7,479 nt of DNA from an uncultured Gammaproteobacteria bacterium (GTDB lineage: Bacteria; Patescibacteriota; Microgenomatia; Daviesbacterales; UBA10151). The DNA lies in the NCBI GenBank assembly GCA_964360965.1, contig CAYHYM010000010.1:19495-26973 (forward strand), in the 5' to 3' direction. Below are positions 2,587 to 7,479 of the stretch, piece after piece; position 1 is the first letter of the stretch, and every line of letters starts with the position of its first letter. The notes beneath the pieces are model-generated. The model ran no database searches and was not told the origin of the DNA. It saw nothing but the letters and a program-made list of their open reading frames with translations. The position numbers were made by a program, and so were the translations under genes.

Positions 2587-3186
2587 ATGACAGAGCCAGA
2601 TAAAAGTGAGCATGTTTCTCCACTAATGTTAAATCAACGACTGATTGTGATTATTAAAAGAGAAGCTATAAATGAGGTTGCAAATGGCTTACCTAATTCA
2701 GTAATAGCATTACAGCAGGCTGAAAATGTAGTATCAATTGCTAGTAGAAGTATTTTATACAAAGTTCCAAGGAGAATATTTGAGGACGAACGGGCCCAAA
2801 ATATAGCAAGAGAGCTTGAAACTTTATTTGGGTTTGCATACCATCTTACTAATACAGGTCGACAGGTTATTACTGGAGATATTCTTGAATATTTATTTGG
2901 GCCTGGTCTGCCTGATGAACACAACCCTGATAAAAGAATTCCTATTCCAGGATATATTGCCGATTTGGTAAAGTCAGAGGAAGGAGGCTTATTTAATAAG
3001 GAAAAGGCCCCTGAATTAGAAGCTGGCGCGTACAGATCATTAAAAAGAAATTCAGATATTGCTACAAGATGGGTTAACCCATTTAAATTTTTACAACCTT
3101 TAGGTTATGAGATTAAAGATATGCTAGATGTTGTGGAGCATTGGGAATCTGAATTAATAAAAAAGCATGGTGTAATCCCCCAATAA
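2587..3186 (+). CDS. hypothetical protein (199 aa), no family recognised
   Basis: A long open frame starts 7 nt after the dnaK stop, with GAGG (2572-2575) 11 nt upstream of the ATG. It has coding-like composition and no low-complexity sequence. I see no catalytic or DNA-binding motif. It lies between the two copies of the dnaK 3' end. Confidence 0.6.
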   Translation: MTEPDKSEHVSPLMLNQRLIVIIKREAINEVANGLPNSVIALQQAENVVSIASRSILYKVPRRIFEDERAQNIARELETLFGFAYHLTNTGRQVITGDILEYLFGPGLPDEHNPDKRIPIPGYIADLVKSEEGGLFNKEKAPELEAGAYRSLKRNSDIATRWVNPFKFLQPLGYEIKDMLDVVEHWESELIKKHGVIPQ

Positions 3187-3242
3187 TATTTTCATTTTTC
3201 CCACGACCGTAGCATAAATGTATGGATGGGAATTCAGTTTGA

Positions 3243-3265
3243 GCATTTTTAATGGTGGAATCCTA
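3243..3265 (+). repeat. 23-bp direct repeat, copy 1 (gcatttttaatggtggaatccta)
   Basis: Identical 23-mer at 4044-4066. Its 3' half, ggaatcctaatt-like, resembles the inner end of the left hairpin arms (gcaggaatctaatt, gcgggaatccaatt). Confidence 0.8.
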
Positions 3266-3267
3266 TT

Positions 3268-3297
3268 TTGTATTTTTGTAGTACTTTGTGGTACAAT
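3268..3297 (+). promoter_or_regulatory. putative sigma70-type promoter for brnT-brnA
   Basis: TTGTAT (3268-3273), an 18-bp spacer, then an extended -10 TGgTACAAT (3289-3297). The predicted start is near 3304-3305, only 4-5 nt before the brnT ATG, giving a near-leaderless mRNA. Confidence 0.5.
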
Positions 3298-3308
3298 TTG
3301 TTTTGTGA

Positions 3309-3602
3309 ATGAAAGTAGATGAGCTTATTTTCAATGAAAGAAATATTGAACATATAGCTCGTCATAATGTTTTGCCAGAAGAAGTTAAGGAAGTTATAGA
3401 AGGGAATATTTTACCGCTGAAAGCTAAATTAGGGAGAGTGATGGTGATAGGTAAGACTAAAAAAAGTAGAACTTTGGCTGTAATTTTAGAAAAGTTTAAA
3501 GGTAATATCTACTTTCCTGTGACAGCTAGAGGTGCTGATAGGAAAGAAAGGAAAATGTATAAGGAAGAGATAGGAGGTGAAAATGAAAAAGAAAGTAATT
3601 AA
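3309..3602 (+). CDS. brnT: BrnT-family (DUF497-like) type II toxin, 97 aa
   Basis: The N-terminal ...FNERNIEHIARHNVLPEEVKEV... matches the WDxxNxxHIxxHGVxxEEAEEV pattern of BrnT-like toxins. The C-terminal ...PVTARGADRKERKMY matches the conserved (I/V)(S/T)AR...(K/R)ER..Y end. The gene overlaps the downstream antitoxin gene. Confidence 0.8.
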   Translation: MKVDELIFNERNIEHIARHNVLPEEVKEVIEGNILPLKAKLGRVMVIGKTKKSRTLAVILEKFKGNIYFPVTARGADRKERKMYKEEIGGENEKESN

Positions 3603-3861
3603 AATGCCCAAATTTAAAAATTATGAGGAAGAAACCCGTTTCTGGGGTACTCACTCTATTGCTGATTTTAGGAAAGAGCTTAAAAAAACTAACTTAGAGG
3701 TAAAAAAACCTTTAAAAATGACTTTTACTGTCAGGCTTGATCCTAAAACTGTGAAAGAGCTTGATAGTGTGGCCAAGGAGAAAGGGGTAGGCCCTAGAAC
3801 CTTAGCCAGGATGTGGCTTTTAGAAAAGTTAAAAGAGGACTATTATTCTAAATCTGCTTAA
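3583..3861 (+). CDS. brnA: BrnA / CopG-like antitoxin, 92 aa
   Basis: ATG at 3583 lies 6 nt after AGGAGG (3572-3577) and overlaps the brnT 3' end by 20 nt. MPKFKNYEEETRFWGTHSIADF... and the C-terminal ...RLDPKTVKELDSVAKEKGVGPRTLARMWLLEKLKE are the typical BrnA-antitoxin layout (an FW.THD-type N-terminus plus a ribbon-helix-helix-like C-terminus). Confidence 0.8.
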   Translation: MKKKVIKMPKFKNYEEETRFWGTHSIADFRKELKKTNLEVKKPLKMTFTVRLDPKTVKELDSVAKEKGVGPRTLARMWLLEKLKEDYYSKSA

Positions 3862-3862
3862 G

Positions 3863-3955
3863 GAAGCAGTTGAAGGTGAAGTGGTTGAAGATCCTTCGGC
3901 GGGTTCGACAAGCTCACCGCAAGCAAGCTCAGGACAAGGAAAAAAGTCAGAGTAA
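3863..3955 (+). pseudogene. orphan duplicate of the last 31 codons of dnaK, including the stop
   Basis: It aligns without gaps to 2488-2580 at 75/93 identical nucleotides by hand count. It reads [30 protein letters not shown] against [30 protein letters not shown] in dnaK. It begins immediately after the brnA stop and has no start codon or upstream dnaK body. Confidence 0.85.
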
Positions 3956-4043
3956 CTATGACTTAAGCTACTTCTATAGGTGAGTTGTTAAATCCAGTAG
4001 CTATATATCAACGCCTCAGTGATATTTATTATCCTAATTTGTC

Positions 4044-4066
4044 GCATTTTTAATGGTGGAATCCTA
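4044..4066 (+). repeat. 23-bp direct repeat, copy 2
   Basis: Identical to 3243-3265. Locally, atcctaatttg also occurs twice, 30 bp apart (4031-4041 and 4061-4071). Confidence 0.8.
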
Positions 4067-4079
4067 ATTTGCCTCCTTT

Positions 4080-4165
4080 GTCATTCCTGCGAATGCAGGA
4101 ATCTAATTAAAAACTAACTTAAAATGGTTAATTGGATACCGGTATTCACCGGTATGACAGATAAG
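4080..4165. repeat. MITE-like double-hairpin element, second copy, immediately upstream of the GIY-YIG gene
   Basis: Left arm 4080-4108: gtcat-tcctgc-gaat-gcagga-atctaatt. Right arm 4128-4158: ttaattggat-accggt-attc-accggt-atgac, followed by agataag. The layout matches 290-371. Confidence 0.75.
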
Positions 4166-4181
4166 GTGTCATAATTAAACT

Positions 4182-4463
4182 ATGTATTATGTTTACATTT
4201 TAGCTTCTAAAAGAAATGGAACTTTATATATTGGTATAACAAATAATTTAGTCAAAAGAGTATATGAGCATAAAAATGATTTAGTAGAAGGATTTACTAA
4301 GAAATACCAAGTTCATAATCTGGTTTACTTTGAGCCACATGAAGATGTCAATGAGGCTATAACTAGAGAGAAACAAATGAAGGAATGGAAAAGATATTGG
4401 AAAATAAAAACTATCAATAAATTTAATTCTGGTTGGAAAGATTTATACAGCTCAATTGTTTAA
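4182..4463 (+). CDS. stand-alone GIY-YIG (URI-domain) nuclease family protein, 93 aa (UPF0213 / COG2827-like)
   Basis: MYYVYILASKRNGTLYIGITNNLVKRVYEHK... carries the GIY-YIG beta-hairpin motifs (YVYIL ... LYIG) plus the conserved R..EH and the downstream E...E.K..W.R..K segment typical of this family. The stop TAA (4461-4463) lies inside the conserved TTAATTGGAT repeat box. Confidence 0.9.
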   Translation: MYYVYILASKRNGTLYIGITNNLVKRVYEHKNDLVEGFTKKYQVHNLVYFEPHEDVNEAITREKQMKEWKRYWKIKTINKFNSGWKDLYSSIV

Positions 4464-4490
4464 TTGGATCCCCGCGTAGGCGGGGATGAC
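4460..4490 (+). repeat. solo hairpin unit (right-arm type) overlapping the GIY-YIG stop codon
   Basis: ttaattggat-ccccgc-gtag-gcgggg-atgac. The conserved boxes are identical to 334-364 and 4128-4158, and the stem is different but perfectly complementary. Confidence 0.8.
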
Positions 4491-6618: not shown

Positions 6619-7479
6619 ATGGCAGAAAACATAAGACCACCTATTGTAACCATCCTTGGCCATGTTGATCATGGTAAGACTACCTTACTCGATTTTATCC
6701 GTAAATCTAATGTAGCCTCCAAAGAACATGGTGGAATTACCCAACACATTGGTGCCTACCAGATTGAGGTTCCGCAGGAACCGAAATCCCGAGAGAGCGA
6801 AGCGAATCGAGGGATCCTTCGGCAAGTCTTCGACTCCGAGGACTTCGACGGTGAGCTCAGTCGAACCGTCGCTCAGACTCGAGGAGCTCAGGATGATTTT
6901 GCGAATAACCGCAAAATCACTTTCATAGATACTCCTGGTCATGCTGCCTTTGAAAAAATGCGATCTCGGGGTGCAAAGGTTGCGGATATCGCAGTACTGG
7001 TGGTGGCAGTTGATGATGGAATAATGCCTCAAACTATTGAGTCCATAAAACATATTCAGGAAGCAAAGATTCCCTTGATTGCGGCAGTTAATAAGGTAGA
7101 TTTAGCAGGAATTAATTTAAAAGTTCAACTGGAAAAGATCAAAAAACAACTTTCAGATAAAGGAGTTTTGGTTGAAGAATATGGTGGAGATGTGCCTGTT
7201 GTGCCTTTGTCAGCAAAAACAGGAGAAGGAGTAGATAAGCTTTTGGAGATGATTTCACTTGTTGCAGAAATGCATGAGATAAAAGGGGATCCTCAAACTC
7301 CTGCATCCGGGGTGGTAATTGAAGCTAATTTAGATAAATTTAAAGGACCTATTGCCACAATTTTGGTAAGGAATGGCCAACTTAAGAAAGGTGACCAGAT
7401 AATGGTTGGTGGAGTAAAAGGAAGAGTTCGTGGGATGTTTGATTTTTCAGGTAAAAGCTTAGATCAGGCTGGACCATCA
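6619..7479 (+). CDS. infB: translation initiation factor IF-2, 5' part (3' end outside the window), carrying a 47-codon in-frame insertion
   Basis: Not listed in the ORF track because there is no stop in the window. I read the frame codon by codon through 6960 (the whole insert and both junctions) and translated the rest at sight, without seeing a stop from ATG 6619 to 7479. [25 protein letters not shown] (G1), [10 protein letters not shown] (G2), [10 protein letters not shown] (G3), NKVD (G4), SAKTG (G5), then ...[29 protein letters not shown]... (domain II). An in-frame TGA at 6592-6594 rules out any N-terminal extension. Confidence 0.93.
6769..6909. repeat. 141-nt GC-rich palindromic repeat block inserted in frame in the infB G domain
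   Basis: 79/141 G+C (56%) by hand count, against 23/60 in 6661-6720 and 20/60 in 7081-7140. Hairpins: ggttcc-gca-ggaacc (6767-6781), atccc...gggat (6786-6815) and gacggt-N12-accgtc (6846-6869). The GGATCCTTCG, (C)TTCGAC x2, GCTCAG x3 and GCTCAGGA motifs are shared with the dnaK tail repeats. Other bacterial IF2 proteins have only about 5-8 residues here (E. coli AYHVETENGMITFLDTPGH). Confidence 0.7.

Follow-up and report, generated by a model that had tools for sequence, protein, structure and literature searches.

Organization of the ssn locus

The window analysed here (the whole 7,479-nt stretch of contig CAYHYM010000010.1) carries the 3' end of grpE, dnaK, dnaJ, nusA and the 5' part of infB, along with several small insertions. 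One of these, located between dnaK and dnaJ, contains a gene, ssn (4182-4463, + strand), for a 93-aa single-domain GIY-YIG nuclease that we assign to the SsnA family, and this gene is enclosed by inverted hairpin repeats of the kind called Ssn-related motifs (SRM). We found that the compact SRM-ssn-SRM unit (4080-4490, +; 411 bp, or 369 bp without the stretch that holds an extra hairpin) is a discrete cassette occurring at unrelated sites, and that orthologous sites differ in whether they hold solo or paired hairpins. Hainich groundwater metagenomes contain near-identical contigs, and the closest named relative is a Candidatus Daviesbacteria metagenome-assembled genome (MAG); judged by these relatives, the host is a groundwater bacterium of the Candidate Phyla Radiation (CPR)/Patescibacteria, probably Daviesbacteria.

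The window contains five copies of one hairpin unit, each of 24-31 nt. Read on its own strand, the unit consists of GTC, an 8-bp stem starting with AT, a 4-nt loop, the second arm of the stem, and then C(C/T)AATT(AA). Unit A (290-318, +; GTCATTCCCGCGCAAGCGGGAATCCAATT) lies 3 nt past the grpE stop codon, and its core, ATTCCC-N8-GGGAAT, agrees with the definition of the Neisseria dRS3 repeat as given in PMC11893778. Together with unit B (334-364, -; GTCATCCCTGCGAATGCAGGGATCCAATTAA on the - strand), which is inverted relative to it, unit A forms a gene-less convergent pair of 75 bp after grpE (290-364). Unit C (4080-4110, +; GTCATTCCTGCGAATGCAGGAATCTAATTAA) makes the left end of the cassette and unit E (4459-4490, -; GTCATCCCCGCCTACGCGGGGATCCAATTAA on the - strand) its right end, while unit D (4128-4158, -) stands by itself as an additional unit, placed between unit C and the ssn gene, such that units C and D (4080-4158) constitute a second pair-like arrangement inside the cassette. 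The ssn stop codon TAA (4461-4463) lies within the box TTAATTGGAT (4459-4468) of unit E, and the same box is found in both gene-less units of the - strand (334-343 and 4128-4137). A sequence-only reading of this DNA had described hairpin arms framing a 93-aa gene, an extra right arm, a gene-less 75-bp unit and a stop codon inside a conserved box, and all of these descriptive statements proved correct.

The five units vary in a way that preserves the hairpin. Three of the eight stem positions differ between units, on both sides each time (T-A, C-G or A-T at position 3; C-G, T-A or G-C at position 6; C-G or T-A at position 8), and all 40 of the 40 stem cells remain paired. When folded as single-stranded DNA (ssDNA), the five units adopt the same hairpin, with energies of -7.4 to -9.3 kcal/mol and z-scores of -3.3 to -5.0, and every unit keeps both the GTC that precedes the palindrome and the C that follows it. 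A detector based on structure only (GTC, stem of at least 7, loop, stem, C) found these five units and no others in the window, as compared to a mean of 0.5 and a maximum of 3 in 300 dinucleotide shuffles.

The ssn protein and the published Ssn system

A nuclease and hairpin-repeat system of this kind has already been described by Chenal et al. (2025, Nat Commun 16:2388; PMC11893778). Its repeat is the Neisseria Transformation Sequence (NTS; CGTCATTCCCGCGMAVGCGGGAATCYRG), the core of which is the old dRS3 repeat, and SRM is the wider class. SsnA of Neisseria meningitidis is a 94-aa single-domain GIY-YIG protein which binds and cuts the hairpin as ssDNA only and on one strand only, at a site a few nt 5' of the hairpin, and which neither binds RNA nor cuts duplex DNA (PMC11893778). 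From the oligonucleotide lengths reported in that paper, we infer that the cut falls ~3 nt before CGTCAT. The three bases before the palindrome are critical for cleavage and the C after it for binding, the activity of N. meningitidis SsnA is lost when the palindrome is altered with the hairpin kept, and the catalytic residues mutated in that enzyme were Y6, Y17, and E64 (PMC11893778). Deletion of ssnA raises transformation by NTS-bearing DNA ~5-fold, and the role of the enzyme in Neisseria is to limit such transformation; among ssnA homologues, 71% have at least one SRM and 42% have SRM on both sides (PMC11893778). The sequence-only reading knew of no described mechanism that links such a nuclease to hairpins; this view no longer holds, because the association, the biochemistry and the role in Neisseria are all published. 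The label UPF0213/COG2827 which it gave to the protein is approximate only, the family being placed in CDD cd10448 (GIY-YIG_unchar_3) by PMC11893778.

The window protein matches Pfam GIY-YIG (PF01541) over residues 1-74 (E = 3e-16) and has no further domain. A tblastn search of PLSDB matched two N. gonorrhoeae chromosomes filed as plasmids, with E = 5e-27 against the N. gonorrhoeae chromosome, which is within the threshold used in the paper (E < 1e-10). The matched open reading frame (ORF) of 94 aa carries Y6, Y17, and E64 and is followed by NTS copies. By BLASTP, the window protein is 53% identical to this gonococcal SsnA orthologue over 90 residues without a gap (E = 5e-38), with its catalytic residues Y5, Y16, and E63 standing opposite Y6, Y17, and E64, and these three residues are invariant across 21 homologues. 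An AlphaFold2 model of the window protein (pLDDT 86) has the GIY-YIG fold, and its best PDB matches in a fold search were UPF0213 BH0048, Slx1, I-TevI and UvrC GIY-YIG domains; these matches are generic, and there is no solved Ssn structure. A PDB search by sequence gave no relative, NCBIfam, PADLOC and PHROGs gave no specific family, and phage genomes gave no homologue at E <= 1e-10. A plasmid collection gave 32 matches, mostly chromids or mislabelled chromosomes. Based on these similarities, the window protein is very probably a GIY-YIG endonuclease of the SsnA family, with the five units as its likely cognate SRM-type sites (NTS/dRS3).

Association of ssn genes with hairpins

More than 8000 homologues of the window protein were detected, many of them on very short contigs. 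For comparison we used 80 genome loci with 85 homologous genes, whose products are 60-73% identical; the phyla represented include Omnitrophota, Pseudomonadota, Planctomycetota, Chloroflexota, Nitrospirota, Saccharibacteria and other CPR. Nearly all of these loci have GTCAT-stem-loop-stem-ATCCAG a few tens of nt upstream of the start codon and an inverted copy, CTGGAT-stem-loop-stem-ATGAC, adjoining the ssn stop codon. A unit lies within 100 bp of the gene in 75 of the 85 cases, and a canonical inverted pair surrounds it in 41. Units are 29-fold denser close to the gene, with 9.6 per kb in the nearest 100 bp as compared to 0.33 per kb in the rest of the flanks. Thus the enrichment of hairpins near GIY-YIG genes that the sequence-only reading had anticipated is borne out across the 80 loci.

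The structure-based detector, with a background of ~0.09 hits per kb in shuffles, found 553 units over the 80 loci as compared to ~110 in the shuffles. When hits were selected by their flanks only, 211 of 340 formed all seven free inner stem pairs, and compensatory stem variants among them include ATTCCCGC, ATTCCGGC, ATTCCTGC, ATACCGGC and others. Among 153 arrangements of neighbouring units, the gene-less convergent pair is the commonest (86). Strong units are rare in 80 CPR loci picked via DnaK rather than ssn, with 13 in 551 kb, as against 304 in 1.19 Mb. In several loci the reading frame continues through the downstream hairpin, and homologues P0120 and P0104 begin with MSFPRKRES and MPACAGTTRGIP, respectively, which qualitatively confirms the earlier remark that hairpin-derived peptide tails occur on GIY-YIG database entries. 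These results support the view that nuclease and hairpins are one system and that their association is general.

Boundaries of the cassette and empty sites

The closest homologues of the window protein, which are 92%, 89% and 82% identical to it, are encoded in unrelated gene contexts, among them between mreB and a Wzy/tetratricopeptide repeat gene, adjoining a VIT1 gene, and elsewhere. Compared with loci L165, L166 and L167, nucleotide identity is 85-86% within 4080-4490 and 27-42% in the flanks. The homology with cassettes at unrelated loci starts at GTCAT (4080) and stops at ATGAC (4490), and since identity falls to background at these two boxes, the transferable unit is exactly the cassette 4080-4490. 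The cassettes of L165-L169 are otherwise collinear with that of the window and are without a 42-nt stretch holding unit D, which implies that this solo unit was gained or lost inside the cassette. Some contigs begin inside the left hairpin, as would be expected if assembly broke at a repeat. One deltaproteobacterial MAG contains two copies of the cassette, 91% identical and bounded at both ends; between L059 and L067, the region is too repetitive for the boundaries to be defined.

Related genomes provide sites with and without these units. The dnaK-dnaJ spacers of L085, L087 and L089 (DnaK 83-86% identical) have neither ssn nor a hairpin, L088 has ssn after dnaJ instead, and L006 has the cassette directly after dnaK, at the same place as the window. 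The A+B pair, together with ORF74 (see below), is absent between grpE and dnaK in L006, L085, L086 and L087, where the gap between the two genes is 0-60 nt (the genes overlap in L006), and L087 is collinear with the window up to the insertion point of the pair. The insertion polymorphism proposed in the sequence-only reading is therefore seen at related loci both for the pair after grpE and for the cassette after dnaK. Its further proposal of an autonomous element with a miniature derivative fits these comparative data in respect of sharp ends, unrelated sites and empty sites, which speak for movement and do not by themselves identify its agent. As far as can be judged from such comparisons, movement at the level of the cassette is likely.

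Several other arrangements were observed at these loci. The two deltaproteobacterial copies (L017 9884-10371 and L035 9884-10398) sit inside a larger unit, which has a perfect 17-bp outer inverted repeat, CATAAGCGCTAACTTAA, at its ends and direct repeats of ~12 nt on either side (CCCCCCAGCCCC in the case of L017). The larger unit looks like a composite carrier of the cassette resembling a miniature inverted-repeat transposable element (MITE), with a possible target duplication. L035 has hairpin units lying within the loops of other units (among other places at 14502-14640 and 17922-18060), and other small palindromes are also inserted in SRM loops, which suggests that insertions target the folded hairpin. 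In L006, the Daviesbacteria relative, the gene downstream of ssn (9966-10906) encodes a methyltransferase-like protein of 184 aa and has a hairpin unit of the - strand on either side, giving the order SRM-ssn-SRM-gene-SRM between dnaK and dnaJ. At the 'empty' sites of L087 (c. 3990-4010) and L165 (c. 4270-4290), an ATGAC pentamer is kept where the window has TTAATTGGAT-stem-loop-stem followed by ATGAC; this may reflect gain or loss of a hairpin right beside the pentamer, or chance.

Comparison with known systems

The window system shares with Ssn/NTS of Neisseria the protein family, its length and catalytic residues, the GTC-palindrome-C hairpin, the inverted NTS-ssn-NTS layout and the genome-wide association. 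It differs in its host, CPR or Patescibacteria being not mentioned in the text of PMC11893778, in its 3' box, ATC(C/T)AATTAA instead of ATCYRG, and in the stop codon built into the repeat, and the activity of its enzyme is a prediction from sequence. The dRS3 repeats and neisserial intergenic mosaic elements (NIME) have the same 20-bp palindrome core and likewise include paired repeats bracketing short segments, but they were defined in Neisseria only, with neither orientation nor enzyme, and have been superseded by the NTS definition of 2025.

In layout, the locus resembles repetitive extragenic palindromes (REP) and bacterial interspersed mosaic elements (BIME) with their REP-associated tyrosine transposase (RAYT): one small gene lies between inverted hairpin repeats which are also scattered in gene-less form, often as inverted doublets, and the hairpin is recognized as ssDNA. 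The sequence-only reading had named REP/RAYT as the nearest analogy, and the same IS200/IS605-REP/RAYT parallel is drawn in PMC11893778. However, RAYT is an HUH Y1 tyrosine transposase with 5'-phosphotyrosine chemistry, whereas the window enzyme is a GIY-YIG hydrolase with no other domain, and the nicks predicted for the two ends fall on opposite strands. The likeness to REP/RAYT is thus one of layout only, and membership was rejected for want of an HUH Y1 domain. A classical insertion sequence (IS) or MITE was also considered and rejected; inverted ends are present, but a target-site duplication is absent.

GIY-YIG homing endonucleases of the I-TevI type share the catalytic fold and a link to gene mobility. 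Unlike the window protein, which is a single domain of a family whose published substrate is ssDNA only, they have a separate DNA-binding domain and duplex targets and reside in introns or inteins or, as free-standing genes, in phages, and assignment to this class was rejected given the absence of an extra domain, of a phage homologue at the above threshold and of a PHROG match. The attC sites of integrons are also imperfect palindromes which are read as folded single strands in a strand-specific manner and which bound gene cassettes. They are, however, recombined by a tyrosine integrase, of which there is none here, and the window hairpins are much shorter.

Proposed mechanism and alternative explanations

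If the window protein behaves like its characterized homologues, it would ignore duplex DNA and RNA and would bind the hairpin once the GTCAT...ATCC strand is in single-stranded form, as might occur in incoming transforming DNA or in replication or recombination intermediates. The bound strand would then be hydrolysed a few nt 5' of the GTCAT box. This predicts top-strand nicks just left of 290 and 4080 and bottom-strand nicks just right of 364, 4158 and 4490, and thus just outside the gene-less pair and the cassette. The gene-less hairpins would be non-autonomous copies that depend on the nuclease, and new copies may be made by host functions, through nick-initiated repair, recombination or replication. 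Such a route is more likely than true transposase chemistry, because a GIY-YIG enzyme hydrolyses DNA and forms no covalent intermediate. For the host, the effect may be trimming or restriction of SRM-bearing ssDNA, and hence a modulation of recombination, as in Neisseria.

Several points weigh against reading the locus as an Ssn/SRM system that has moved as a cassette. The published degenerate SRM pattern, HGTCWYN(0-2)YYVSBRHN(0-5)WNVSBRGN(0-2)RNCYNB, matches none of the five window units, and only two of them when its last two letters are dropped; the failure arises from the final position, where the pattern (ATCCAG) does not allow the A of the window units (ATCCAA), so that the 3' box of the window units, ATCCAATTAA, falls outside the published search. 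Since the pattern misses these units, the specificity of the window enzyme may differ from that of the enzymes studied, and since the five stems differ while changes in the palindrome abolish the activity of N. meningitidis SsnA, some copies may be poor substrates. No direct repeat indicating a target-site duplication was found across the cassette or the 75-bp pair. Moreover, the L006 Ssn is 72% identical to that of the window, as are GrpE, DnaJ and NusA (71-73%), and a nuclease as diverged as its neighbours points to long vertical residence at the dnaK site rather than to recent movement. The lack of a homologue in phage genomes, and a set of plasmid-collection matches made up mostly of chromids or mislabelled chromosomes, likewise speak against recent activity at this site. 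Finally, a role in transformation is an assumption for CPR bacteria. With regard to the first of these points, the critical GTC and C are kept in all five units, and we therefore read the mismatch as a lineage variant of the motif, comparable to the NTSvar of PMC11893778, to which a hand-made pattern was too narrow; membership is unaffected. The window system is thus a new, somewhat divergent member of the known Ssn/SRM system and not a new kind.

How the cassette and its hairpins spread can be explained in more than one way. In the most far-reaching explanation, SRM-ssn-SRM is a currently active, self-sufficient, IS-like element with Ssn as its transposase and the gene-less singles and pairs as its MITEs, making it a GIY-YIG counterpart of IS200/IS605 and REP/RAYT. 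The discussion of PMC11893778 raises the same idea, noting that NTS-ssnA-NTS resembles an insertion sequence and suggesting domestication, with mobility only as a hypothesis, and we found no follow-up on the mobility of Ssn in the literature searched. The inverted hairpins at the two ends, sharply bounded wherever the cassette lies at an unrelated site, the presence/absence polymorphism of cassette, pair and solo unit, and the two bounded copies in one genome all agree with it, as do the 60-73% identity of Ssn across unrelated phyla and the very short contigs of close homologues, some starting inside the hairpin, as would be expected for a multicopy repeat. However, the nucleases of the GIY-YIG superfamily act by hydrolysis of DNA, and neither a covalent intermediate nor strand transfer is known for them. 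An enzyme that cuts one strand orientation would nick the two ends on opposite strands, unlike IS200/IS605, and with no covalent intermediate the 'peel and paste' scheme is not simply transferable to this system. In addition, neither a target-site duplication nor a conserved target is seen, and the cassette appears to be stably inherited at the dnaK site of the window and L006. The boundaries and polymorphisms are compatible with Ssn-driven movement, and an active autonomous element is a possibility that we hold only tentatively, the balance of these points being on the doubtful side.

Many GIY-YIG enzymes are homing endonucleases, and a homing-type spread may be envisaged in which gene-less pairs are 'empty alleles': nicking by Ssn would lead repair to copy the gene in via the ~30-bp arms, and the reverse would delete it. 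The gene-less convergent pairs, the commonest arrangement, do share arm order and orientation with the cassette ends, and the window itself contains such a pair at 290-364 as well as the pair-like C and D units in the cassette. On the other hand, we found no orthologous site at which one genome has a pair and another the filled cassette, the sites that are empty in relatives are without any hairpin, the arm stems differ between copies and leave little continuous homology, and the published enzyme does not cut duplex DNA, so that this explanation appears improbable. Still further from the data is the view that the hairpins are terminators or regulatory stem-loops of the heat-shock operon, acting at the RNA level, with the nuclease gene nearby by coincidence. 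Stable stem-loops in intergenic positions directly after stop codons (grpE, ssn) would suit such a role. Nevertheless, the stems are followed by no T-tract, a scan found no terminator-like site (the single promoter-like site that it gave is below chance), and an Rfam search gave no match. Flanks that are non-palindromic yet conserved (GTC...C), with an orientation towards ssn that holds strictly in all these phyla, are also foreign to a terminator, SsnA binds no RNA, and relatives run the same operon without the hairpins. We consider an RNA-level role highly improbable.

As a discovery, the locus adds little to the link between nuclease and hairpin, to its biochemistry or to the REP/RAYT analogy, all of which were published in 2025. 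What is new, and of modest value, is the placement of the Ssn/SRM system in CPR/Patescibacteria, with their very small genomes, a variant repeat of this lineage which escapes detection by the published pattern, and clean comparative evidence that the 370-410 bp cassette, the solo hairpin and the hairpin pair are discrete insertions with ends at GTCAT/ATGAC and no target duplication. This evidence sharpens the question left by PMC11893778, whether and how the nuclease spreads its own sites, and gives well-defined substrates for it. Were the active-element explanation true, a 93-aa GIY-YIG hydrolase acting on folded ssDNA would drive a previously unknown pathway of transposition or homing, and the cassette would be the smallest autonomous element known (~370 bp), spread over bacterial phyla including CPR.

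Other features of the window

The window has further insertions and repeats. For ORF74 (399-623), between grpE and dnaK, searches of Pfam, NCBIfam, PADLOC and PHROGs gave no match. The dnaK gene has its final ~83 nt present twice (2488-2570 and 3863-3945, 84% identity), and between the two copies lies a 1.3-kb block (2587-3861) consisting of ORF199, which has no family match, and a BrnT-like toxin/CopG-BrnA-like antitoxin pair. This block is absent from relatives L006, L085 and L087, and it looks like a gene insertion with duplication of its target. A 28-nt direct repeat, GCATTTTTAATGGTGGAATCCTA(T/A)TTTG, with 96% identity between its copies (3243-3270 and 4044-4071), is interleaved with the dnaK-end duplication, its first copy preceding the toxin gene and its second directly preceding the ssn cassette. 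In dnaJ, a frameshift at c. 5265 corresponds to the loss of 1 nt (CCCT-CGGG) when compared with L001, a near-identical contig with an intact gene of 309 aa; either the assembly is wrong here or the gene is a pseudogene at strain level.

Another repeat family, rich in GC (GGATCCTTCG...GCTCAGGA), occurs as in-frame insertions in the C-terminal tail of DnaK (2514-2562), in the duplicated remnant of that tail (3889-3937) and in the IF2 G domain (c. 6776-6895). Differences between the two dnaK copies of this repeat are apparently compensatory. The last of these insertions adds ~40 extra residues with a local GC content of 0.56 as compared to ~0.40, and this infB insert also holds an SRM-like half hairpin at 6783-6817.

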